DNA of 32,000 bases from positions 430,444 through 462,443 of the forward strand of contig PQXB01000001.1 of assembly GCA_003194425.1 (NCBI GenBank), written 5' to 3'. Source of the DNA: Candidatus Methanophagaceae archaeon (lineage in GTDB: Archaea; Halobacteriota; Syntropharchaeia; Alkanophagales; Methanospirareceae). The translations under genes were made by a program, and so were the position numbers. Below, piece after piece: positions 12,833 to 29,819 of the stretch; within the stretch, counting starts at the first letter, position 1; each line of letters starts with the position of its first letter. The notes beneath the pieces are model-generated. The model was not told the DNA's origin. It was given only the letters and a program-made list of their open reading frames with translations, and did not search any database.

Positions 12833-15136
12833 TTGGAAATTGTGAATGAGAAGCAGGAGTTGTTGAGGTTGCTGCGGGGGGGTATTTTGAGGAGTGTTCC
12901 GCGAGGGGAAGAGAAGGGGGAGGAGAAAGGAAAGAAGAAGTTTGGAGTGCTTTTTTCGGGGGGGTTGGATTCTACGCTCCTCGCTTGGCTGTGCAAGGAA
13001 GAGGGGCTTGATTTTGCCTGCTACACGGCGGCGGTAGAGGAAGCGGGGACGAGGGAGAGGGAGGGAGAGGAAGAGGGGGAGGGAGAAGAGGTAAGGAGGA
13101 AGGGGCTGAAAGAGGCGGAGGATTTGAGGTGGGCGAGGCGAGTTGCGGCGGATTTGGGGTTTGAGTTGCGGGTTAAGACGGTGGGGGTAGCGGAGGTGGA
13201 GGAGATTTTGAGGGAGGTGGTTCTGCTCTTTGGGGAGGAGGATGTGGTGAAGGTGAGCGTGGCGTTGCCTTTTCTCGTGGGCTGCAGGCAGGCAAGAGAG
13301 GACGGCGTAAAGACGCTCCTCTACGGGCTCGGGGCAGAGGAACTGTTCGCAGGCTACGCAAGGCACCGGCGAGTGAGGCGGGAGGACTTGAACAAGGAGT
13401 GTCGGGCGGGTTTGGCGGCGCTGCCCGAGCGGGACCTTTACAGGGACTGGCTGGTGGCGAAGGCGGCGGGAATTTCACTGCGGGCGCCGTTCTTGGCGGA
13501 GGAGTTCGTTGAGTTCGCGTTGCGGCTGCCTGCCTCGTGCAAACTCTCAACGCCAAACGGTGAGAACGGCGAGAACGAGAACAGCGAGGACAAGGTGATT
13601 TTAAGGGAAATTGCGAGGGACTTGGGGCTGGGAGAGGTCGCGGGCAGGAAAAAACGGGCGGTGCAGTACGGTTCGAATTTCCTGAAGGCGTTGGAGAAAC
13701 TGGCGAAGAGAAACGGTTTTAAGTACAAGAGGGACTACCTGCGGAGTTTTTTCCCGCCCCGAAATCTAAAGTTGGGCTGCCTCTTCAGTTCGGGCAAGGA
13801 CAGTGCCTTTGCACTCTGGCTAACGCGGAGGGCGGGCTGCAGAGTGGTGTGTTTGGTCACGTTAAAGAGCCGAAACCCCAACTCCTACCTCTTTCACACG
13901 CCCGCGGTGGAGTTGGCGGAGTTGCAGGCGGAGGCGGTTGGGCTGCCGTTGGTTCTGCAGGAGACCGCAGGCGAGAAGGAGGCGGAGTTGGAGGACTTGC
14001 GTGCTGCTCTGCGGACGGCGAAGGCGAGGCACGGGGTCGAGGGCGTCGTAACCGGTGCGTTGTGGAGCAGCTACCAGAAGGAGCGTTTTGAGAGGGTTGC
14101 GAGTGAAGAGAACCTCAAGGTCTTCTCGCCGTTGTGGCACTGCAACCAGGAGACCGAGTTGCGGCTCGCGGTCGCCAACTTTGAGGTGATTTTTACGAGC
14201 GTCGCCGCGCAGGGACTGGACAAGAGCTGGCTCGGCAGGCGAATAACTGCGGAGGATGTCGAGCGGTTGGCGGAGTTGAACAAAAAAATAGCGAAGCATT
14301 TTAATCAAACTTTTCTAAAGTTTGGTGGAATAAATGTTGCAGGAGAGGGCGGGGAGTTCGAGTCGCTGGTTCTCGACGGTCCGAAAGAGCTCTTCAAGAA
14401 ACGGCTGGTCGTGTTGGAGAGCGAGGTTGTGGAGGAGGACGAGAACACGGCGAGACTGGTAGTGAAGAAGGCGAGGCTGGAGGAGAAGGTAAAGGAGGAG
14501 GAGAAGGGGAAGGAGGAGGAGAAGAGGAAGGAGGAGGAGAAGGGGAAGGAGGAGGAGAAGGGGAAGGAGGAGGAGAAGGGGAAGGAAGAAGGAGAAATGT
14601 CAATTCCGGAGAAGCATAAAAAAGGGGCGAAGAAGAAGTTTAAATGTGCTGTGCTCACGGTAAGCACCTCTAAATTCTGGAGGCGAGAGAGGGGCGAGTC
14701 GGAAGAGGAGGTCGCGGATTTGTCAGGCAAAATAGCGAAGGAACTTGTAGCGAGAGCAGGGCACGAGGTGGTTTTCTACGACCTGCTGCCCGACGAGGAG
14801 GAGAAAATAAAAGAGGGCGTCTCAAGTGCGTTGAAGAGTGGGGCGGATTTTGTTGTTACCTCTGGCGGAACAGGCTTGACAAAGAGCGACCTCACGATTG
14901 AGGTTGTCTCGAGACTGCTGGAGAAGGAGATGCCGGGGTTTGGCGAAATCTTCAGGCTGAAGAGCTACGAGACTGCGGGGGTCGGCACCGCGGCGGTCTT
15001 GAGCCGTGCGGTTGCTGGCGTCGTGGGGCAGAAGGCGGTCTTCTGCCTGCCCGGGTCGCCAGACGCGGTTAGGCTGGCGTTGAGCGAGATAATTCTGCCG
15101 GAAATAGGGCATATTCTGAAGCACGCGAGGGAGTGA
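12833..15136 (+). CDS. uninterrupted triple-domain ORF: Asn-synthase-like PP-loop domain, Dph6/MJ0570-like ATP-binding domain and MoaB/MogA domain
   Basis: 767 aa with no in-frame stop. Domain 1 has FSGGLDSTLLAWL, LYGLGAEELFAGY and ISLRAPFL (AsnB synthetase domain, no glutaminase domain). Domain 2 has LFSSGKDSAFALW, FHTPAVELAELQAEAVGLP, GALWSSYQKERFERV and GEGGEFESLVLDGP (diphthine-ammonia ligase family). Domain 3 has CAVLTVSTSKF, SGGTGLTKSDLT and CLPGSPDAV (MoaB). The start is uncertain (TTG 12833 or GTG 12842; there is no early ATG). Inserts include GEEKGEEKGKKK, EREGEEEGEGEE and (EEEKGK)n. Confidence 0.75.
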   Translation: MEIVNEKQELLRLLRGGILRSVPRGEEKGEEKGKKKFGVLFSGGLDSTLLAWLCKEEGLDFACYTAAVEEAGTREREGEEEGEGEEVRRKGLKEAEDLRWARRVAADLGFELRVKTVGVAEVEEILREVVLLFGEEDVVKVSVALPFLVGCRQAREDGVKTLLYGLGAEELFAGYARHRRVRREDLNKECRAGLAALPERDLYRDWLVAKAAGISLRAPFLAEEFVEFALRLPASCKLSTPNGENGENENSEDKVILREIARDLGLGEVAGRKKRAVQYGSNFLKALEKLAKRNGFKYKRDYLRSFFPPRNLKLGCLFSSGKDSAFALWLTRRAGCRVVCLVTLKSRNPNSYLFHTPAVELAELQAEAVGLPLVLQETAGEKEAELEDLRAALRTAKARHGVEGVVTGALWSSYQKERFERVASEENLKVFSPLWHCNQETELRLAVANFEVIFTSVAAQGLDKSWLGRRITAEDVERLAELNKKIAKHFNQTFLKFGGINVAGEGGEFESLVLDGPKELFKKRLVVLESEVVEEDENTARLVVKKARLEEKVKEEEKGKEEEKRKEEEKGKEEEKGKEEEKGKEEGEMSIPEKHKKGAKKKFKCAVLTVSTSKFWRRERGESEEEVADLSGKIAKELVARAGHEVVFYDLLPDEEEKIKEGVSSALKSGADFVVTSGGTGLTKSDLTIEVVSRLLEKEMPGFGEIFRLKSYETAGVGTAAVLSRAVAGVVGQKAVFCLPGSPDAVRLALSEIILPEIGHILKHARE
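14492..14581. repeat. 18-bp tandem repeat x5 (aaggaggaggagaagggg) at the Dph6-like/MoaB junction, in frame
   Basis: Copies sit at 14492, 14510 (one substitution), 14528, 14546 and 14564. They encode KEEEKG repeats and end 15 nt before the internal ATG at 14597. Confidence 0.95.
14597..15136 (+). CDS. moaB: possible independently translated MoaB cistron nested in the fusion ORF
   Basis: The in-frame ATG at 14597 is preceded by gaaggagaa (Shine-Dalgarno-like). The 179-aa product MSIPEKHKKGAKKKFKCAVLTV... has the normal length and N-terminus of a stand-alone MoaB. Confidence 0.45.
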   Translation: MSIPEKHKKGAKKKFKCAVLTVSTSKFWRRERGESEEEVADLSGKIAKELVARAGHEVVFYDLLPDEEEKIKEGVSSALKSGADFVVTSGGTGLTKSDLTIEVVSRLLEKEMPGFGEIFRLKSYETAGVGTAAVLSRAVAGVVGQKAVFCLPGSPDAVRLALSEIILPEIGHILKHARE

Positions 15137-18737: not shown

Positions 18738-20345
18738 ATGAGCGGAAACGAGCCATTCATAAAAATCGCGGGCATTTGCAAGGAGTTTGAGGGCAAGGAA
18801 GTTCTGAAGAATGTGAGCGTGGAAATAAACGAAGGGGAGTCGTTGGGTCTGCTCGGCAGGAGCGGTTCAGGGAAGTCGGTCCTGCTTCATATGTTGCGAG
18901 GCACCGAGGAGTACGCACCAACGAGCGGCGAGATAATTTTCAGGGTCGCTGTCTGCCCCTCGCCCGCGTGCGGTAGGGTAGAACCGCCGAGCAAAGCCGG
19001 TGACCCGTGCTCCAAGTGTGGTGCGGAGTTGGAGTTTAGGGAGGTGAATTTTTGGAAGGACCGGGAAGCGAGGAAGCGGGTGAAGAAGGCTGTTGCAATT
19101 ATGCTGCAGCGAACCTTTGGTCTCTACGGGGACGACACTGTGATGTACAATGTCTTGCAGGCGTTGGAGAGCAGGAACTACCCCGCGGACAAGCGGTTCA
19201 GGCGGGCTTACGAACTGCTGAAGGCGGTAAAAATGATTCACCGAATTTCCTTCCCTGCAAGCGACCTCAGCGGCGGCGAGAAGCAGCGAGTAGTCCTGGC
19301 ACGGCAGTTGGCGTTAGACCCGATGCTGCTCCTCGCGGACGAGCCGACTGGGACGCTGGACTTTGAGACTGCGAAACTTGTTCACAAGGCACTGAAAGAC
19401 AGCGTAAAAGCTGGAATGACGATGATCACGACCTCGCACTGGCCTTATGTAATCGAGGAACTGACAGAGAAGACTTTGTGGCTGGACCACGGCGAGATCG
19501 TCGAGTACGGGGCGACGAAAGAGGTCGTAGAAGAATTTAAGAAGCAGGTCGGGGAAATCGAGCGGGAGGAGTACGCGAAACTCGGGAAGCCGAAGATAAA
19601 AATCGAGCACTGCAAGAAGTACTACTACTCGCTGTGGCGGGGAATGGTGAAGGCGGTGGACGATGTCTCGCTCACGATAAACGAGAACGAGATATTTGGG
19701 ATTGTGGGCAAGAGCGGGTCAGGAAAAACGAGTTTAGCGCGGATTATCTGCCAAATTGACGCTCTTACTGGTGGCTCGGTCAAGATAAGAAGCGGGGAAG
19801 AGAGGTGGATTGAGGTCGGAAGGGTAGCAGAGACAGGCGTTTGGATTGCTTGGGGTGCGAGAACGCCGGGTGTGGGCGAGCAGGCAGCGACGCACGTCGC
19901 GATGCTGCACCAAGAATATTCGCTCTACCCTGAGAACACGGTCTTGGAGAACCTGACGAGTTGCATCGGCTTGAAAATACCCGAGGAGTTGGCGAAGATG
20001 AAGGTGCTTTTTATTCTGCAGAGCATCGGCTTCAGCGAGGACGAGGCGCTGGAGATTCTGCCGAAGGACCACACACAACTGAGTGCGGGCGAGCGGCAGC
20101 GGATTGTTTTGGCGCAGGTCTTGATGAAGGAGCCTGCGGTTGCCATTCTCGACGAGCCGACTGGAACGATGGACCCGATAACAAAGAAGTTCGTCGCCGA
20201 ATCGATAAGGGCGGCGCGGGAGAACCTGGGAATTACTTTCCTGATCGTCTCGCACGACCTTGATTTTGTTAAAATGGTCTGCGACCGGGCGGCGCATATG
20301 AAAAACGGGAAGGTGACGGAGGTAGAGGACTTGAGGGGTGCGTGA
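18738..20345 (+). CDS. atwA: methyl-coenzyme M reductase system component A2 (double ABC ATPase)
   Basis: 535 aa with two ABC cassettes (GRSGSGKS ... [15 protein letters not shown] ... [11 protein letters not shown], then GKSGSGKT ... [15 protein letters not shown] ... [10 protein letters not shown]). The cysteine-containing insert [23 protein letters not shown] in cassette 1 is, as I recall, characteristic of the component A2 family. Confidence 0.85.
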
Positions 20346-20411
20346 AAAAGAGGCGTGAAAAAGAGGCGTAAAAAAGAAGCGTAAAAGAAGGGTGAAAAAG
20401 AAGTGTGAAAA
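20340..20411. repeat. 12-13-bp tandem repeat x5.5 occupying the whole atwA-mcrC spacer
   Basis: gcgtgaaaaagag occurs at 20340 (it contains the atwA TGA at 20343..20345) and at 20353. Degenerate copies follow: gcgtaaaaaagaa, gcgtaaaagaag, ggtgaaaaagaa and gtgtgaaaa, the last running into the mcrC ATG at 20412. Confidence 0.9.
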
Positions 20412-21011
20412 ATGGCAGTAGGAAGAGAGACGCAGGTTGTAGCGTGTAGAAAAGGGCAGGCACTCGGGTTGGGCGGCGGGATCGCACAGCGCGGGACTTT
20501 TGCAAAGGCGTGGCGGAACGATGTAATCGCGGTCGCGATGTCGCCGGGCTACAGGCACGTGCCGAAGCCGGTCTGCCAAATAACCACTGAATTGCGGGGC
20601 AGGGGAATAAACACGGGCGAGATAATTTTGAACGCCGGGGACGGAACGCCAGCGGACGCACCCTCAGGCGGCGGGCACGGCGTAGCCTTCGGTCTCGAGC
20701 CGCGGGAGATTGAGATCATTGGACAGCACAAACTCGCGATTTTGCACCACGGCAACGTAAAAGAGCATTTCATCTACAAGGTGCGGTTTGAGTTGCGGAA
20801 GGTCGCGGTGCCTGCGATCGTTCTCTGCCAGTCGCCGCTGACCTTTGAAGACTTCGAGGAAATCGGCGTGAGCACGCGGAACAAAGCCGGCGAGACGCCT
20901 GGCAAAGTCGTGGGAATTGTTACAGGCATCGTGCGAAACGCGGACGTCCCGCAAGCGAAACTCGACGAAATCGTGAGCAAGGTAAAAATGTGCCTCCGAG
21001 AACTCTCTTAA
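20412..21011 (+). CDS. mcrC: methyl-coenzyme M reductase operon protein C
   Basis: 199 aa. GGGIAQRGTFA, VIAVAMSPGYRHVPKPVCQIT, DAPSGG, LAILHHGNVKEHFIYKVRF, FEDFEEIGV and KLDEIVSKVK are collinear with McrC as I remember it from Methanothermobacter. No mcrA/B/G/D gene is in the window. Confidence 0.9.
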   Translation: MAVGRETQVVACRKGQALGLGGGIAQRGTFAKAWRNDVIAVAMSPGYRHVPKPVCQITTELRGRGINTGEIILNAGDGTPADAPSGGGHGVAFGLEPREIEIIGQHKLAILHHGNVKEHFIYKVRFELRKVAVPAIVLCQSPLTFEDFEEIGVSTRNKAGETPGKVVGIVTGIVRNADVPQAKLDEIVSKVKMCLRELS

Positions 21012-22818: not shown

Positions 22819-23127
22819 TCACACTGTTTCTTGCCGCCGCAAATGCTCGGCACGGACAAACAACTCCTTCGCCTTCTTCTTTCCCCGCCGACCGTCCGAA
22901 ATCTGCACGACAAACGCCCTACCCCGCTCTCCTTTTACCCTGCCGGTCAAGCCGTGAAATCGGTGGTGCGGCATTCCCTTGTGAACGCTAGGGTCAATTT
23001 TGATGTGCACTCGATCTCCCGGCTCAAACCTCTGAATCGCTCGGCTTATCGGGGACAGACCCCGCTCCCGCTTCCGCTTGCTCAACTTCCTCCTCGTCCT
23101 CTTTCTTTCACCCTGTGAACGTGCCAT
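22819..23127 (-). CDS. rpl21e: 50S ribosomal protein L21e
   Basis: 102 aa. FEPGDRVHIKIDPSVHKGMPHHRFHGLTGRV is the SH3-like L21e core. It converges on the SBDS gene with a 2-nt gap. Confidence 0.92.
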   Translation of the reverse strand: MARSQGERKRTRRKLSKRKRERGLSPISRAIQRFEPGDRVHIKIDPSVHKGMPHHRFHGLTGRVKGERGRAFVVQISDGRRGKKKAKELFVRAEHLRRQETV

Positions 23128-23214: not shown

Positions 23215-24645
23215 ATGCTGCTTGAAATGCCAAGGCACACGGAAATCTTCGGCTCGGTTAAGGTTCACGAGCTACAACGCGTGCTAAAATTAGACTCCGG
23301 CGGGTTTGAGAACCCACGTGCAAAGGACATTAGTTCTGAAGAGCTTAAAGGGGTTTTAAAGCGTTCTGCAATCGTGGTTCCGGTAAAGAACGAGAACCTG
23401 AACCTGCTGGACGGTGTTTTGCGGGCGATTCCGTTTGACTGCTCGATTATCGTGGTCTCGAACAGCGAGCGGGTCTCGCAGGACACCTACAAAATGGAGC
23501 GGGAGCTGGTAACTAACACCCACGACCTGACGCAGCAGGAGATTCTCATAATTCACCAGAAAGACCCCGGATTAGGCTCTGCTTTTCACGAAGTTGGTTA
23601 TGAGGAGATTCTTGAGAAGGAGAAGTTGGACGGAAAGGAGGCGGGAGAGGAGGCGGGAGAGGAGGCGGGAGAGGAGGCGGGAGAGGAGACAGGAAAGGAG
23701 AAGAAGAAATGGTTGGTCAGGGACGGGAAATCAGAGGGGATGATCATTGGGATGCTGCTTGCGAAGTCGCTGGGCAAGGATTTTATCGGGTTCGCAGACG
23801 CCGACAATTTTGTGCCTGGTGCGGTGCGGGAATATGTGATGGATTTTGCTGCTGGGTTCTGTATGTCTGAGTCGCCGTTCTCGATGGTGCGACTTCACTG
23901 GCGCTACAAGCCGAAGGTCGTGGAGGACAAACTCTACTTCAAGAAATGGGGACGGGTCAGCGAGACCACGAACAAGTACCTCAACCTCCTCATCTCTACC
24001 TGCACGGGCTTCGAGACCGGGGTCGTGATCACCGGGAACGCGGGCGAGCACGCACTGACGACGAGGCTCGCAGACTTGATGTGCTACTCTACCGGCTACA
24101 CAATCGAGCCCTACCACTTCGTTTTTCTCTTCGACAAGTTTGGACCAAGGGAGGCGGAGGAGTCTGCTGAGAAGGTGGGTGCTGAGAAGGTGGGTGCTGA
24201 GAAGGCGGGTACTGAGAAGGCGGGTACTGAGAAGGCGAGTTCAGAAGCTGCGAACGCGGGGATTGAGATCTTTCAGATCGAGACATTGAACCCGCACTTG
24301 CACGAAGAGAAGGGGGAGGCGCACATTAATGAAATGCTGACCGGCTCGCTGCGAATGGTCTACAACTGCAGGCTCTGTAACGATTATGTGAAGTCGAAGG
24401 TGCTTGCAGAGTTGGAGGGTTTGGAGGCGTTGCAGGAGGATTGGGAAGCCAGGTCAAGGTGGAAGGGCAAACCCAGCCACATAATGCCGCCTGTTGGAAG
24501 AATTGATGTGGGGAAATTTATGAAAGTGCTGAAGAGCAGTTCTGAGTCTCTACTAAGGTGCAAGCAAGGGGCTACAAAGTGTGAAGTGGTGGAGCGGGGG
24601 AGGGGAGAGAAGAAAAATGAAACGAGTTCTTTTTACAGACCTTGA
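23215..24645 (+). CDS. mpgS: mannosyl-3-phosphoglycerate synthase (GT55) with two repeat inserts and a C-terminal extension
   Basis: MLLEMPRHTEIFGSVKVHELQRV, VVPVKNENLNLLDGVL, IIHQKDPGLGSAF, GFADADNFVPGAVREYV, MVRLHWRYKPKV, YFKKWGRVSETTN, TGNAGEHALT and IEIFQIETLNPHLHEEKG are collinear with Pyrococcus MpgS as I recall it. The inserts are (EAGE)x4 and (AEKVG)x5. The last 28 or so residues extend past the usual ...SESLLR end and overlap mpgP by 29 nt. Confidence 0.92.
   Translation: MLLEMPRHTEIFGSVKVHELQRVLKLDSGGFENPRAKDISSEELKGVLKRSAIVVPVKNENLNLLDGVLRAIPFDCSIIVVSNSERVSQDTYKMERELVTNTHDLTQQEILIIHQKDPGLGSAFHEVGYEEILEKEKLDGKEAGEEAGEEAGEEAGEETGKEKKKWLVRDGKSEGMIIGMLLAKSLGKDFIGFADADNFVPGAVREYVMDFAAGFCMSESPFSMVRLHWRYKPKVVEDKLYFKKWGRVSETTNKYLNLLISTCTGFETGVVITGNAGEHALTTRLADLMCYSTGYTIEPYHFVFLFDKFGPREAEESAEKVGAEKVGAEKAGTEKAGTEKASSEAANAGIEIFQIETLNPHLHEEKGEAHINEMLTGSLRMVYNCRLCNDYVKSKVLAELEGLEALQEDWEARSRWKGKPSHIMPPVGRIDVGKFMKVLKSSSESLLRCKQGATKCEVVERGRGEKKNETSSFYRP
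23638..23697. repeat. in-frame 12-bp repeat x4 perfect plus one degenerate copy (gaggcgggagag) in mpgS
   Basis: Identical copies at 23638, 23650, 23662 and 23674, then gagacaggaaag. Confidence 0.95.
24166..24240. repeat. in-frame 15-bp repeat x5 (gctgagaaggtgggt and variants) in mpgS
   Basis: Copies at 24166, 24181, 24196, 24211 and 24226 show stepwise single-base drift (gtgggt to gcgggt, gctgag to actgag, gcgggt to gcgagt). Confidence 0.95.
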
Positions 24646-25456
24646 CGGGACGCTGCTCGACTTGTTTGACTACTCTTACGAGGCTGCGGTTCCGTGTTTG
24701 GAGGCGTTGAAGAAGCAGGGGGTGCCGGTCGTCTTCTGCACCGCGAAGACGCTCGCAGAGAACGAGTACTACCAGAGGGTGTTGGGAGTGAGCGACCCGT
24801 TCATCGTGGAGAACGGCGGTGCGGTCTTCGTTCCCGAGGGCTACTTCTCGTTCGGGTTTGAGGCGGACTGTAAAAAGCGGAGCGGGGAGAGGGGAAATTA
24901 CTGCGTTCTTGAACTCGGTGCTTCGTACGCGGAGCTGCGGCGTGCCTTAAAAGAAATCCGCGAGGAGACCGGGTTCAAAATAACGGGCTTCGGCGACCTG
25001 ACCGCGGAGGAGGTTGCGGCGGACGCGAACTTGAGCGTTGAAATGGCGAGGCTTGCGAAGGCGAAGCAGTACAACGAGAGTTTTATTTTTGACGAGCCCG
25101 AGGAGAAGGAGGCGGTTCTGTTTGCGAAAATCGCGGAGAAGGGGTTTGGTTTCACGCACGGCGGCAGGTACTACAACATTCACGGCAAGAAAGCGGACAA
25201 AGGGAGGGCAGTAAAAATACTCACAGACCTCTTCAAAAAGGAGTACGCAGCGGTCGGCGGCGGAGGAGTGCAGACAGTCGGCGTCGGGGACAGTCAGAAT
25301 GACATTTCAATGCTGAAAGCGGTGGAGCAGCCTGCGGTCGTGAGGAACAAGAAGGGCGGGTGGCTCGAAGTTTCGCTGCCAAACCTCTACAAAGCCGAGG
25401 GCGAGGGAACCGCGGGCTGGGTTGAGGTCGTGAAAAAGTTTTTTGAGGTTACATAA
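24617..25456 (+). CDS. mpgP: mannosyl-3-phosphoglycerate phosphatase (HAD-IIB)
   Basis: ATG 24617 gives MKRVLFTDLDGTLLD (HAD motif I). VVFCTAKT (motif II) and GVGDSQNDISML (motif IV) follow. It lies immediately downstream of mpgS. Confidence 0.85.
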   Translation: MKRVLFTDLDGTLLDLFDYSYEAAVPCLEALKKQGVPVVFCTAKTLAENEYYQRVLGVSDPFIVENGGAVFVPEGYFSFGFEADCKKRSGERGNYCVLELGASYAELRRALKEIREETGFKITGFGDLTAEEVAADANLSVEMARLAKAKQYNESFIFDEPEEKEAVLFAKIAEKGFGFTHGGRYYNIHGKKADKGRAVKILTDLFKKEYAAVGGGGVQTVGVGDSQNDISMLKAVEQPAVVRNKKGGWLEVSLPNLYKAEGEGTAGWVEVVKKFFEVT

Positions 25457-25466
25457 GGTTACATAA
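25447..25466. repeat. 10-bp tandem duplication (ggttacataa x2) containing the mpgP stop codon
   Basis: Copies at 25447..25456 and 25457..25466. The TAA at 25454..25456 is the mpgP stop, and the next gene's ATG is at 25468. Confidence 0.95.
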
Positions 25467-25467
25467 A

Positions 25468-26577
25468 ATGACGTGGAGAGAGGAGCTTAAAAAAGACATT
25501 AGCACTCTTGAGCAGCTCAAGGAGTTCGTAGACCTGACTCCAAAGGAGAAGAGGCAGTTACGAGAAATTACAGAAATCCACCCAATGCGAATTACTCGTT
25601 ATTATTTGTCGCTGATTGACTGGGACGACCCCGACGACCCGATTAGAAAGATGGCAGTTCCGTCAGAGGCGGAGTTGAACCTGTTGGGCAGCTACGACAC
25701 GAGCGGCGAACTGGAGAACACGAAGATGCCGGGGCTGCAGCACAAGTACAGCCAGACCGCCCTGATTTTAGCGACGAACCAATGCTCGACCTACTGCCGT
25801 CACTGCTTTAGGAAACGGCTGGTCGGTCTCTCGAGTGCAGAGATTTTGCAGCGGTTTAACGACGCGGTGAAATACATCGAAAAACACAGCGAGGTTAACA
25901 ACGTGCTCGTGAGCGGTGGCGACCCTTTTGTCCTGCCAACCGCGGTGCTTCGGGAATTTTTAGAGCAGCTCTCAGCAGTCCCGCATTTGAATTTTATAAG
26001 ATTTGGAACCCGCGTTCCCGTCACATTTCCAGAGCGGATTTTGGAGGACGAGGAGTTGTTGCGTCTGTTGGAGGAGAACTCGCGGGCGGAGCGAAGGATT
26101 TATGTGGTAACTCAATTCAACCACCCCCGAGAAATCACGGAGAAAGCCACTGCCGCCGTTGCTCGACTCATTAGCGCTGGCGTGATTCTGAACAACCAGA
26201 CCGTCTTGCTGAAGGGCGTGAACGACGACCCCGCGGTCTTGGCGGAATTGCAGAATAAACTCGTCAGCGTCGGTGTTAATCCTTATTACATTTTTCAATG
26301 CCGACCTGTAAAGCGTGTTAAGAACAATTTTCAAGTGCCGTTGCAGCGGGGCTACGAAATCGTTGAAGCGGCGAAGAAGCGGCTTAACGGGCACAGCAAA
26401 AGGTTTAAATATATTCTCTCGCATCAGAGCGGGAAAATTGAGATTGTGGGAGTTGAGGGAGAGTTTATTTATTTTAAGCACCACCAAGCGAAAGAGCCTG
26501 AAAATATAGGAAAATTGTTTAGACGGCGGTTGAACAAGACTGCTGGGTGGCTGGACGAGTTAGAAGAGGTTGAGTGA
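25468..26577 (+). CDS. KamA-family radical SAM aminomutase (lysine or glutamate 2,3-aminomutase-like)
   Basis: 369 aa. QCSTYCRHCFRKR (CxxxCxxC), VLVSGGDPF, FNHPREIT, NQTVLLKGVNDD and PYYIFQCRPV are present. It contains no repeat insert. Confidence 0.85.
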   Translation: MTWREELKKDISTLEQLKEFVDLTPKEKRQLREITEIHPMRITRYYLSLIDWDDPDDPIRKMAVPSEAELNLLGSYDTSGELENTKMPGLQHKYSQTALILATNQCSTYCRHCFRKRLVGLSSAEILQRFNDAVKYIEKHSEVNNVLVSGGDPFVLPTAVLREFLEQLSAVPHLNFIRFGTRVPVTFPERILEDEELLRLLEENSRAERRIYVVTQFNHPREITEKATAAVARLISAGVILNNQTVLLKGVNDDPAVLAELQNKLVSVGVNPYYIFQCRPVKRVKNNFQVPLQRGYEIVEAAKKRLNGHSKRFKYILSHQSGKIEIVGVEGEFIYFKHHQAKEPENIGKLFRRRLNKTAGWLDELEEVE

Positions 26578-26593
26578 GAGAGGGAAATCTAAA

Positions 26594-29500
26594 ATGAGAA
26601 ACGAAATGCGAGGGGGAGACAAAGAGGGAGGAGCGAAAGAGGGAGGAGCGAAAGAGGGAGGAGCGAAAGAGGGAGGGAAAGAAGGTGAAATGAGAGAAGA
26701 GGGCGAAGGAGGAGTAGAAGGAAAAGAGACGATTTACTTGGTTCCGCACACGCACTACGACGCGATTTGGGCGTTCACGAAGGAGGATTATTTTCACATA
26801 AATATGGTTTTGATTTTGCAGGAGGTGGTCGAGCTTGTAGAAAAGAAAGATTACAAGTTCCTGATTGAGCAGACATTTCTGCTGGAAGAGTTGGAGAGGC
26901 GGTACCCGGGGGTGTTTGCGAAGGTTGCGAAGGGGGTGAAGGAGGGAAAGATTGAGATTGCCGACGGCGAGTATTTGATGGCGGACACGATGCTGCCCGA
27001 GGGGGAGACGCTGATAAGGGAGATTTTTGAGGGGAAGAAATATGTAAAGGAGAAGTTTGGGAAGGAGGTGCCGGTAATGTGGCAGGCGGACAGCTTTGGT
27101 CTGAACGCGCAACTGCCGCAGATTTACAAGAAATCGGGCTACAAATATGTCGCTTTCCGGCGGGGGGTGACGAAGAGGAAACCGTCGGAGTTCTACTGGG
27201 CGGCTCTGGACGGGACGCGGATTTTGGCTCACTGGATGCCGCTGGGCTACCGGGCAGGGCTGGACTTGACGAAGTTGGAGGAGAGTTACGCGAAGTTGAA
27301 GGAGGTTGCGGCGACCTCGCAGATTTTAATGCCGTCTGGCAGTGGCGTTACGGTGCCGCAGCCAGAGACCGCAGAGGTCGTGCGGGCGTGGAACGAGGCG
27401 GCGAAGGGAGCAGGACTGGGAGCAGGACTGGGAGCAGGACTGGGAGCAGGAGCAGGGAAAGGAGCAGTGCAGGGAGCGGGACAGGGAGGAGGAGCAGGAC
27501 AGGGAGCAGGGAAAGGAGCAGTGCAGGTTGGGGGGGAGAGAGCGGAAATGAAAGTAGCGACGCCGAGCGAGTTCTTTGAAGCGCTGGAGAGGGAGGTGGC
27601 GGAGCGGAAGATTGAGTTGGAGGTCAGGCGGGGGGAAATGTATTCGGGGCGGTTTTCAGAGGTCTTTCCGAGTTGCTGCTCGAGCAGGATGTGGATAAAA
27701 CAGGAGCTCAGCGAGTACGAGTGTTGGCTGCTCTGCTGCGAGCGGTGGAGCACCGTAAACTACCTCCTGAACAACCCCTACGTCGAGGAAGAGGCGAGGA
27801 ACTGCTGGCGTAAGATTTTGTACATCGCTTTTCACGATGTCGCACCTGGAACCGGAATGGACGAGGGCTACGAGGAGGTGCGGCAGTTCCGTAACTTCTT
27901 AAACACCGAAATGACCACTCGCTGCCACCGCACGCAGAATCAGGTGATTGAAAGCGAGTCAGAGGACGGAGAGAGAAAGGGGGACGGAGAGAGAAAGGGG
28001 GACGGAGAGAGAAAGGGGGAGAAGGGAGTGAAGAAGGAGGACAAGGAAAAGGAACTCCGAAAGCAATTCTTGATGACGCACGGCTACGGTGACATAATGG
28101 TTTTTAACTCGCTCTCGTGCGAAATGCGGAACTGGGTGGAGATGGATTTGAACTTTGACCGCGGGCAGGTGGTCGCGATTGGCGGGCTAAAGAGTGGTGA
28201 AGAGGAAATCGGGGTGGAGGTGCTAAAATTTGCGAGGTACGCGGACGACTCGTTGCGGTCTGCGAGGATTGGGTTCGTGCCTACGGTTCCTGCGATGGGC
28301 TACAAGATTTATAAAATCCTTGAGCGAAAGCCTAAGCAGTCTCGTTTTGATCCTAATTTTCTGATGACTCGCGGGAACACGATTGAGAACCGTTTCTTTG
28401 GCGTGGAGGTGGACCCTGCCACGGGGTTGGTTGATATTTTTTTCGGGCGTGGGCAGAAGGGAGAGACGGAGCAGGAGCGGATTTGCACTGCGAACGAACT
28501 CGTGCTTGAGGAAGAGACCGGCGACCTTTACTACCACCGAGAGACCTTGCGCGGTCCGCTGAAGAGTGAGACTGGGGAAGGGGTGAAGTACGGCTCGTTC
28601 AGGGTGGAGGATTTCAAGATTGAGGAGAGCCCGCTGCGGCATGTTGTAAGTATTGAGACAGATTATTTTTCACTGCGTTGGCCGTACAGGCTGACCGAGA
28701 AGAAAGAGCCGCTTATTTGGCGGCACAAATTCTTGAAGTGCTCGAAGAAAATTATCGTTTACAAGGACCTTCCGAGAATTGATTTCGTTACAGAAGTAGA
28801 GGACAAGCACCCGCGGGCACGGCTCAGGGTCAAGTTCAGCACGGACATAAAATCGCTGACCTACACTTGCGGAGCGCAGTTTGGCGTTGTTTCACGACCG
28901 ACCGACCAGTGGGGCTTTGAGCCAAAAGAGGCGTGGGTGGAGAAGCCGTGCGGGACATTTCCGTCGCTGAAATGGCTTGATTTCTCTGACGGTCGGAAGG
29001 GCTTGACTGTGCTTCACAGGGGGCTGCCGGAGAACGAGGTGCGAGACGGGAATGTTTATTTGACGCTGCTACGAAGCGTTTCAATGCTCTCCTCGGACGG
29101 CAAGACCGGTCCTGCAATTCCAGTTCCAGACGCGCAGGAGTTGCGGAAGTACGTCTTTAGGTACTCGATTTACCCGCACAGGGGAGATTGGCGTGAAGCG
29201 GCGTCCTACAAGCACGCTCTCGAGTTCAACTACCATTTGGACGCAGTGCAGCTGCGTGAAGAGAAGAAACTTCCTCTAGAACGGTCTTTTCTGAAAATAG
29301 AACCGGAGAGCGTCGTTCTCTCAGCGCTGAAGAAAGCGGAGGCGGGAGACGAGGTGGTGCTGAGATTTTACGAGACGAAAGGCGAGGAGACGGACGCTGA
29401 AATAACTCTCTTCAAGGCGCCAAAATCGGTCAAGGTGGTGAATATGCTCGAAGAAGAGGTGGCAGGGAAAGGCGTGGCAGGGAAAGGCGTGGCAGGGAAA

Positions 29501-29638
29501 GGCGTGGCAGGGAAAGGCGTGGCAGGGAAGGGGAGAGAGGAGGAGGAGTGGATGAAAAAGGAGTTGAGAGTAGGGGGTAGAAAGATAGAATTGACGGTGA
29601 AGCCTTTTGAGATTGTTACTTTGAAGATGAAGTTTTGA
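26594..29638 (+). CDS. glycoside hydrolase family 38 alpha-mannosidase-like enzyme carrying four separate repeat arrays
   Basis: The GH38 catalytic N-domain has LVPHTHYDAIW and MWQADSFGLNAQLP, with central and C-terminal beta domains. Start candidates are ATG 26594 (includes the GGAKE repeats) or ATG 26690 (MREEGEGGVEGKETIYLVPHTHYD). The track start TTG 26570 overlaps the upstream stop. Confidence 0.85.
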   Translation: MRNEMRGGDKEGGAKEGGAKEGGAKEGGKEGEMREEGEGGVEGKETIYLVPHTHYDAIWAFTKEDYFHINMVLILQEVVELVEKKDYKFLIEQTFLLEELERRYPGVFAKVAKGVKEGKIEIADGEYLMADTMLPEGETLIREIFEGKKYVKEKFGKEVPVMWQADSFGLNAQLPQIYKKSGYKYVAFRRGVTKRKPSEFYWAALDGTRILAHWMPLGYRAGLDLTKLEESYAKLKEVAATSQILMPSGSGVTVPQPETAEVVRAWNEAAKGAGLGAGLGAGLGAGAGKGAVQGAGQGGGAGQGAGKGAVQVGGERAEMKVATPSEFFEALEREVAERKIELEVRRGEMYSGRFSEVFPSCCSSRMWIKQELSEYECWLLCCERWSTVNYLLNNPYVEEEARNCWRKILYIAFHDVAPGTGMDEGYEEVRQFRNFLNTEMTTRCHRTQNQVIESESEDGERKGDGERKGDGERKGEKGVKKEDKEKELRKQFLMTHGYGDIMVFNSLSCEMRNWVEMDLNFDRGQVVAIGGLKSGEEEIGVEVLKFARYADDSLRSARIGFVPTVPAMGYKIYKILERKPKQSRFDPNFLMTRGNTIENRFFGVEVDPATGLVDIFFGRGQKGETEQERICTANELVLEEETGDLYYHRETLRGPLKSETGEGVKYGSFRVEDFKIEESPLRHVVSIETDYFSLRWPYRLTEKKEPLIWRHKFLKCSKKIIVYKDLPRIDFVTEVEDKHPRARLRVKFSTDIKSLTYTCGAQFGVVSRPTDQWGFEPKEAWVEKPCGTFPSLKWLDFSDGRKGLTVLHRGLPENEVRDGNVYLTLLRSVSMLSSDGKTGPAIPVPDAQELRKYVFRYSIYPHRGDWREAASYKHALEFNYHLDAVQLREEKKLPLERSFLKIEPESVVLSALKKAEAGDEVVLRFYETKGEETDAEITLFKAPKSVKVVNMLEEEVAGKGVAGKGVAGKGVAGKGVAGKGREEEEWMKKELRVGGRKIELTVKPFEIVTLKMKF
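26626..26670. repeat. 15-bp repeat x3 perfect (gggaggagcgaaaga; GGAKE) at the GH38 5-prime end
   Basis: Identical copies at 26626, 26641 and 26656. The tract is either an N-terminal extension or 5-prime UTR, depending on the start used. Confidence 0.95.
27407..27530. repeat. in-frame repeats in GH38: 12 bp x3 perfect (ggagcaggactg; GAGL), then a 24-nt block repeated at a 54-bp spacing
   Basis: The 12-mers sit at 27407, 27419 and 27431. gagcagggaaaggagcagtgcagg occurs at 27450 and again at 27504. Confidence 0.9.
27964..28017. repeat. in-frame 18-bp repeat x3 perfect (ggacggagagagaaaggg; DGERKG) in GH38
   Basis: Identical copies at 27964, 27982 and 28000. Confidence 0.95.
29459..29533. repeat. 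in-frame 15-bp repeat x4 perfect plus one degenerate copy (gtggcagggaaaggc; VAGKG) in GH38
   Basis: Identical copies at 29459, 29474, 29489 and 29504, with a degenerate copy at 29519. Confidence 0.95.
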
Positions 29639-29657: not shown

Positions 29658-29819
29658 ATGGTAAGCGGAAATGTAGCGTTTGCGTCCCACAAAGGAGGAA
29701 CAGGCAAGACAACCTCCTGCATAAACATCTCCGGATTCCTTGCACTCTGGGATAAAAAAAAGGAGAAGAAAGGAGAGAAAGAGGAGAAGGAGGGGGAGAA
29801 AGACGAGAAGGAGGGGTAG
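29658..29819 (+). pseudogene. remnant of a ParA/MinD-family P-loop ATPase gene (only the first 30 or so codons, then low-complexity sequence and a stop)
   Basis: Manual translation gives [53 protein letters not shown], then a stop at 29817..29819. KGGTGKTT is the deviant Walker A of ParA/MinD ATPases. Everything after about residue 31 is purine-repeat sequence. It is below the track size cutoff. Confidence 0.6.

Follow-up and report, generated by a model that had tools for sequence, protein, structure and literature searches.

In the genome of an ANME-1 (Methanophagales) archaeon, four co-directional plus-strand genes lie within positions 23215-29638 of a 32,000-nucleotide stretch of contig PQXB01000001.1 (assembly GCA_003194425.1), the whole of which was analysed and is called the window here. 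The first, mpgS (23215..24645), encodes a mannosyl-3-phosphoglycerate synthase of family GT55 (476 amino acids; TIGR02460, PF09488) and the second, mpgP (24617..25456, ATG at 24617), a mannosyl-3-phosphoglycerate phosphatase of the HAD-IIB type (279 amino acids; TIGR02461). They are followed by a gene for a KamA-family radical S-adenosylmethionine (SAM)/pyridoxal phosphate (PLP) aminomutase of an uncharacterised subfamily (25468..26577, 369 amino acids; TIGR00238) and by a gene for a GH38 protein without the acid/base Asp of its family (26594..29638, ATG at 26594, 1014 amino acids), which was recognized by four GH38 Pfam domains, gene order and tree placement. The spacers measure 11 nt between mpgP and KamA and 16 nt between KamA and GH38, and the open reading frames of mpgS and mpgP overlap by 29 nt. 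These genes, spacers and the overlap, described in an initial annotation of the sequence, were re-derived and confirmed. Six further assemblies have these four genes arranged alike and encode an identical KamA protein; in one of them GH38 is split in two. The arrangement is therefore not an assembly artefact.

MpgS couples GDP-mannose to 3-phosphoglycerate and MpgP takes off the phosphate, which yields mannosylglycerate (MG). MpgS scores above the equivalog cut-off of TIGR02460 (474.5 against 351.2 bits) and MpgP, whose gene adjoins mpgS, marginally above that of TIGR02461 (246.1 against 244.35 bits), in agreement with their first assignment. In these scores and in the usual gene order the pair resembles the two-step MpgS/MpgP pathway known in Pyrococcus horikoshii and Thermus (PMC1224877), from which the locus differs by a dedicated GH38 gene downstream and by GDP-mannose genes located elsewhere in the genome. 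No GDP-mannose supply genes stand beside mpgS at the locus, as had been remarked in the initial annotation; genes for a phosphomannomutase-type protein and for a nucleotidyltransferase, however, lie together at C1:682.6-685.2 kb, about 225 kb away. MG genes in ANME-1 have already been reported (PMC4335971, citing Meyerdierks 2010).

Active site and phylogeny of the GH38 protein

The GH38 domain set is complete (PF01074, PF09261, PF07748 and PF17677). The predicted model of the Archaeoglobus veneficus orthologue P0052, with a predicted local distance difference test (pLDDT) value of 95.6, gives template modelling (TM) scores of 0.83-0.85 to 2wyi and 5kbp, so that the fold, as modelled, is that of a complete GH38. 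The zinc motif with His54, Asp56 and Trp59 (26747..26770, this and the following features on the plus strand) and the third zinc ligand His414 (near 27833) were located by alignment to solved GH38s and are invariant in the clade to which the protein belongs. Asp166 (27089..27091), nucleophile and zinc ligand, is likewise kept and aligns with the Asp for which the nucleophile mutant 7ufu has Ala.

The main point at this gene, which was not raised in the initial annotation, is the loss of the acid/base residue. Where other family members have the general acid/base Asp (Asp341 in dGMII; Asp232 in SpGH38, PMC2815779), an alignment of 153 GH38 catalytic regions shows Gly251, within the loop MPSGSGV (27329..27349). 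This loop is devoid of any Asp, Glu or His, and no acidic residue comes to the position in either alignment register. Asp is found there in MngB of Escherichia coli and in almost all more distant relatives, and Gly in the proteins linked to MG genes. Two Arg residues, Arg189 beside the invariant Arg190 and Arg220 beside Tyr219 (27152..27259), are clade-specific, being present in 24/24 members and in at most 15% of the sequences outside, and are candidates for anion binding. In the 24-member clade alignment, no further Asp, Glu or His specific to the clade offers itself as a replacement catalyst.

A midpoint-rooted FastTree phylogeny with SH-like support, from which fragments were left out, gathers the MG-linked GH38s on a single branch (support 100) apart from the MngB branch. 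The deepest member of this clade also adjoins mpgP and mpgS, and the nearest relative that keeps the Asp sits in an ATP-binding cassette (ABC) sugar-uptake locus. Two ANME-1 paralogues nested within the clade, P0049 (L111:5947-8517, away from mpgS) and P0042, carry SGDEV in the loop and have also changed the first zinc motif; they look like reversions that regained acidic residues.

E. coli MngB is a GH38 enzyme that cleaves 6-phospho-mannosylglycerate after uptake by the phosphotransferase system (PTS), and the initial annotation had drawn on it as an analogue. Both proteins have the GH38 fold, the zinc site, the nucleophile and a mannosyl-glycerate bond as likely substrate. However, MngB keeps the acid/base Asp where this clade has Gly, no PTS is present here, and the gene of the clade is associated with genes for synthesis and not with genes for uptake. 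With 22-25% identity, separate and well-supported clades, a score of 255 bits against a cut-off of 1138 for the MngB model NF007331 and the loss of the Asp, orthology to MngB was rejected and the analogy could not be sustained.

Linkage of the GH38 gene to mannosylglycerate synthesis

Even sampling of 301 Halobacteriota genomes detected the GH38 clade in 47, all of them among the 50 carriers of mpgS, and in 0/251 genomes without mpgS. Within the family of the Archaeoglobus relatives (f9), 15/16 mpgS carriers have it compared to 0/36 others. Across 24 genomes of the host's own family, mpgS was matched in 22 (once as a fragment only) and GH38 in 21, both being missing from one and the same genus. 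The genes mpgS, mpgP and GH38 are directly adjacent in 10/24 of these ANME-1 genomes and one gene apart in 1 more.

The link between mpgS and GH38 recurs across several phyla and gene orders. A set of 80 loci of this GH38 was taken from the genome collection. In 49 of them, among which are loci of Archaeoglobales, Dehalococcoidia, WOR-3, Methanobacteriaceae, Aenigmarchaeota and Woesearchaeota, mpgS or mpgP lies within 8 kb of GH38. Of 29 loci without either gene close by, 25 belong to genomes that carry mpgS elsewhere. The order is mpgS-mpgP-GH38-manC in A. veneficus, GH38 is convergent to the mpg genes in Dehalococcoidia, sometimes with the fused MgsD type, and an MpgP-GH38 fusion protein occurs in one Methanophagales (P0039). 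A class II glycerate kinase gene stands beside or near GH38 in 11 loci of Archaeoglobaceae and Dehalococcoidia, which makes glycerate a likely product. The conserved unit is mpgS-mpgP-GH38, and KamA is no part of it. The earlier proposal that GH38 is tied to the MG solute is thus borne out by the recurrence of the linkage around mpgS in relatives and other phyla, by near-perfect co-occurrence, by the fusion and by the glycerate kinase neighbours. The unit is probably an ancient cassette that spread by horizontal transfer and serves both to make and to recycle alpha-mannosylglycerate.

Variants of the cassette were also observed. In Dehalococcoidales (L215, L216, L219, L225) and in L168, L169, L187 and L195, genes in the order mpgS, mannose-1-phosphate guanylyltransferase, AsnB-like amidotransferase, mpgP and carbon-nitrogen hydrolase converge on GH38 and are candidates for making and removing mannosylglyceramide. 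In 10 small, incomplete genomes of Aenigmarchaeota, Woesearchaeota and bacteria (L152, L154, L155, L158, L162, L164, L211, L213, L214, L223), mpgP and GH38 were found and no GT55, GT78-like or GT81-like synthase; these organisms may scavenge the solute or synthesize it by the reverse reaction. In the woesearchaeote L163 (146-2321), GpgS-like and MGS_GT (PF21969) genes instead of mpgS precede mpgP-GH38, and glucosylglycerate may be the alternative product.

Proposed chemistry of mannosylglycerate removal

The predicted function of the GH38 clade is the cleavage of MG, a reading based on the cassette, the residues and the neighbouring genes, to which a probability of about three in four is assigned. 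The enzyme would remove MG once it is no longer needed. Zinc would bind the mannose, Asp166 would form a mannosyl-enzyme, as in other GH38s, and an anion would stand in for the missing Asp. With the acid/base Asp replaced by Gly and two Arg added, it is an anion that would have to do the acid/base job.

Phosphorolysis of MG to mannose-1-phosphate is the preferred chemistry, although only tentatively. Phosphate in the emptied pocket would help the glycerate depart and would then accept the mannose (retaining phosphorolysis), and the resulting mannose-1-phosphate would return to GDP-mannose synthesis without a sugar kinase. This chemistry is favoured because no known mannose kinase was found in this genome and in most ANME-1 carriers: a search for ROK or ADP-dependent kinases gave none in this genome, ROK was detected in 1/17 ANME-1 carriers and an ADP-dependent kinase in 0/50 carriers. 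It is also favoured because a mannose-1-phosphate guanylyltransferase-like gene lies near GH38 in 8 loci, whereas the tested loci showed neither a ROK nor a PfkB kinase next to GH38. A missing carboxylate acid/base is characteristic of GH3 phosphorylases, and its removal converts GH84 hydrolases (PMC8950772). The residues of the GH38 would fit the pattern of a retaining phosphorylase, with the nucleophile present, the carboxylate acid/base absent and basic residues for a candidate phosphate site. We propose a likeness to the GH13_18 glucosylglycerate phosphorylase in the retaining phosphorolysis of a sugar-glycerate solute, and to the His-type GH3 and engineered GH84 phosphorylases (PMC8950772) in that phosphate can enter once the carboxylate acid/base is lost; all of these differ in family and sugar. 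Retaining phosphorylases are listed only in GH3, GH13_18, GT4 and GT35, and GH38 is unmentioned (PMC8950772). That the clade represents a natural GH38 retaining phosphorylase, which would convert MG and phosphate to alpha-mannose-1-phosphate and glycerate in an ATP-saving and possibly reversible reaction, is put forward with caution, at somewhat less than even odds.

Several points weigh against this picture. Glycerate is a poor leaving group. GH3 phosphorylases keep a His catalyst, of which the GH38 loop has none, and the placement of Arg189 and Arg220 was read from sequence. As the nucleophile doubles as a zinc ligand (PMC2815779), its retention is no proof of catalysis. Class II glycerate kinase was not found in this genome or in 18/24 relatives, and missing kinases therefore discriminate weakly between the chemistries. 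Two PfkB kinases with unassigned substrate are present in this genome, and the guanylyltransferase genes near GH38 could just as well serve to supply MpgS. In the co-occurrence counts, genomes within one family are non-independent as samples.

Substrate-assisted hydrolysis is a close second among the two chemistries of MG cleavage, though less likely than not in itself. The carboxylate of the glycerate would take the place vacated by the Asp and act as acid/base, with mannose and glycerate as products, and the enzyme would be MG-specific. The change from Asp to Gly opens space for a substrate carboxylate, and Wang and Withers reportedly observed in 1995 that acid/base mutants were rescued by 2-carboxyphenyl glycosides. 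ROK kinases are present in 21/50 carrier genomes, mostly Archaeoglobaceae and Dehalococcoidia, and every MG-cleaving enzyme characterised so far is a hydrolase (PMC6608630). On chemical grounds, however, a carboxylate beside the glycosidic carbon is badly placed for this role, and its pKa is low and would drop further on binding by Arg; most ANME-1 carriers, as said, have yielded no known mannose kinase. The GH63 MG hydrolases (MgH) of Thermus thermophilus and Selaginella (PMC6608630) share with the GH38 clade the proposed physiological role, the removal of stored MG, but are of an unrelated fold and family, and no GH63 MG hydrolase (PF22422) was matched in this genome, which is 92% complete; this negative speaks for the GH38 as the MG-cleaving enzyme here.

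It is unlikely that the GH38 acts mainly as a mannosyl transferase or alternative synthase, with mannose-1-phosphate or MG as donor of the mannose and glycerate, 3-phosphoglycerate or some other compound as its acceptor. A phosphate leaving group requires no acid catalyst, and the 10 small genomes with mpgP beside GH38 and no synthase found would suit such an activity; yet these genomes are incomplete and may scavenge host solute, nearly all other carriers already possess mpgS, and the glycerate kinase neighbours suggest that glycerate is released. More improbable still is a catalytically dead MG-binding protein serving as store, sensor or scaffold. The acid/base is gone, the nucleophile is possibly kept for zinc alone and chemoreceptor genes adjoin GH38 in several ANME-1, but a signalling domain is absent, glycerate kinase genes are neighbours, and the two nested SGDEV paralogues appear to have regained acidic residues, so that a workable active site would have persisted. 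The least credible reading is that of a conventional alpha-mannosidase that acts on N-glycans or oligomannosides and lies near mpgS by chance. The best sequence and fold matches are indeed glycan-trimming GH38s, but they reach 18-22% identity in the fold search, the clade is absent from the 251 mpgS-negative genomes and the acid/base is missing.

The KamA-family gene, neighbouring features and significance

The initial annotation had counted KamA among the genes of the solute locus, but it adjoins mpg and GH38 genes in this species only. Orthologues with 66-75% identity occur in 8/24 genomes of the host's family and also in two further families of its class; outside this species none was found beside mpg or GH38 genes, the neighbourhoods being unrelated, and the gene is present in 0/80 of the GH38 loci. 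KamA is a passenger, a species-level insertion between mpgP and GH38. In L130 and L131 the orthologue directly precedes a D-Ala-D-Ala-ligase-like ATP-grasp/peptidase fusion gene, which is followed by a gamma-glutamyltransferase-like gene.

KamA matches the lysine 2,3-aminomutase of Clostridium subterminale (2a5h) with an E value of 1e-70. It shares with this enzyme, with methanogen AblA and with glutamate 2,3-aminomutase the radical-SAM motif CxxxCxxC, the PLP Lys motif and Arg115 (Arg134 in 2a5h), which we take to be the alpha-carboxylate contact. Inspection of the substrate residues revealed differences: Arg279 aligns to Asp293 of 2a5h, presumably the lysine-binding residue, and Ser or His lies near Asp330. 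Arg occupies the Asp293 site in 119/119 scorable close homologues. Further differences are the length of 369 amino acids, the partner gene ablB, which was not found in this genome, and scores below the substrate-specific cut-offs. Only the subfamily model TIGR00238 is passed, and the AblA, glutamate, arginine aminomutase and EpmB models are missed by far, with 263 against 525 bits for AblA (TIGR03820, the cut-off of which is cleared by a true AblA-type protein from a relative), 266 against 650 for glutamate 2,3-aminomutase (TIGR04368) and 212 against 369 for EpmB (TIGR03821), the weakest of the KamA-type models. Lysine 2,3-aminomutase was rejected on the score, the Arg and the lack of a detected ablB, and the route to beta-lysine suggested earlier falls with it; EpmB, corresponding to the EF-P-type assignment that had been named as a counter-explanation, was rejected on its score.

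The substrate of KamA is probably acidic. In a form restricted to this species, the idea of the initial annotation may hold: KamA may have been recruited to make beta-glutamate as another anionic solute that responds to the same stress, a possibility of somewhat less than even weight. The PLP Lys and Arg115 are both retained, an Arg in the position of Asp293 suggests that the substrate has an acidic side chain, the spacers on both sides are tight, and two orthologues precede the ATP-grasp ligase and gamma-glutamyltransferase genes. On the other side stand the TIGR04368 score and the otherwise unrelated neighbourhoods of the orthologues. A further point against it is that the methanogen glutamate aminomutase is of a 600-amino-acid type, which was seen separately in L149. 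A basic residue at the Asp293 site is present, but it is Arg where glutamate 2,3-aminomutase has Lys.

The initial annotation had also pointed to a C-terminal tail of mpgS and its overlap with mpgP. Both exist, but relatives have similar charged, variable MpgS tails, the distance between mpgS and mpgP ranges from -4 to +63 nt among them, and a special meaning was rejected in favour of a variable, family-wide trait. The surplus length of MpgS and GH38 consists of in-frame tandem repeats that differ among strains. Such purine-rich repeats, with units of 6-18 nt and strain-variable copy number, occur in many genes of the window, as at 23632-23700 and 24165-24237 (two inserts in mpgS), 26610-26676, 27403-27527, 27964-28020 and 29459-29529, with 4 arrays in GH38 alone.

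Upstream, rpl21e (22819..23127, minus strand) is divergent from mpgS, as in about 13 loci of relatives, and marks the place at which the cassette was inherited in ANME-1. After GH38, a stub of a ParA/MinD-type ATPase gene lies at 29658-29810, at the place where relatives (L099, L105) have an intact gene of 257-270 amino acids ahead of a chemoreceptor gene. Elsewhere in the window, atwA and mcrC lie together at 18738-21011, mcrABG not being in the window, and tandem atwA copies directly follow mpgP in two relatives (L117, L124). The presence of atwA and mcrC, together with relatives named Methanophagales, Methanospirareceae or ANME-1 whose proteins are 60-80% identical, places the host in ANME-1. 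A single open reading frame of 767 amino acids (12833-15136) joins an asparagine-synthase-like part to a MoaB-like domain and to a diphthine-ammonia ligase, the last of which scores above its cut-off. Sequencing runs containing DNA of the region derive from hydrothermal-vent and marine-sediment samples. Two metatranscriptome runs contain about 0.8 of its words (contigs only, with DNA carry-over possible); positions 24247-27414 are uncovered in them, probably owing to a filtered record, as the word share exceeds the cover. The promoter and terminator scan was of the bacterial type and is uninformative.

Each of the protein families is known, and the MG-linked GH38 clade without acid/base is the new element. 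No description of it was found in the searchable literature, although the mannosidase next to the mpg genes may have been mentioned elsewhere in print. To our knowledge, no archaeal MG-removing enzyme has been characterised. The characterised MG hydrolases named in the literature consulted are bacterial or plant GH63 enzymes (PMC6608630). The clade is a strong candidate for an archaeal MG-removing enzyme, with a member in the cultured A. veneficus, and the clade-wide loss of the GH38 acid/base would represent a new mechanism for the family under either chemistry. The assignment corrects the label 'alpha-mannosidase', which implies glycan degradation in ANME-1 and Dehalococcoidia. If the enzyme is a phosphorylase, this would be a new GH38 activity and would allow an ATP-saving turnover of the solute in energy-limited archaea, with a reverse reaction that may suffice to produce the solute where a genome has mpgP and GH38 and no known synthase.

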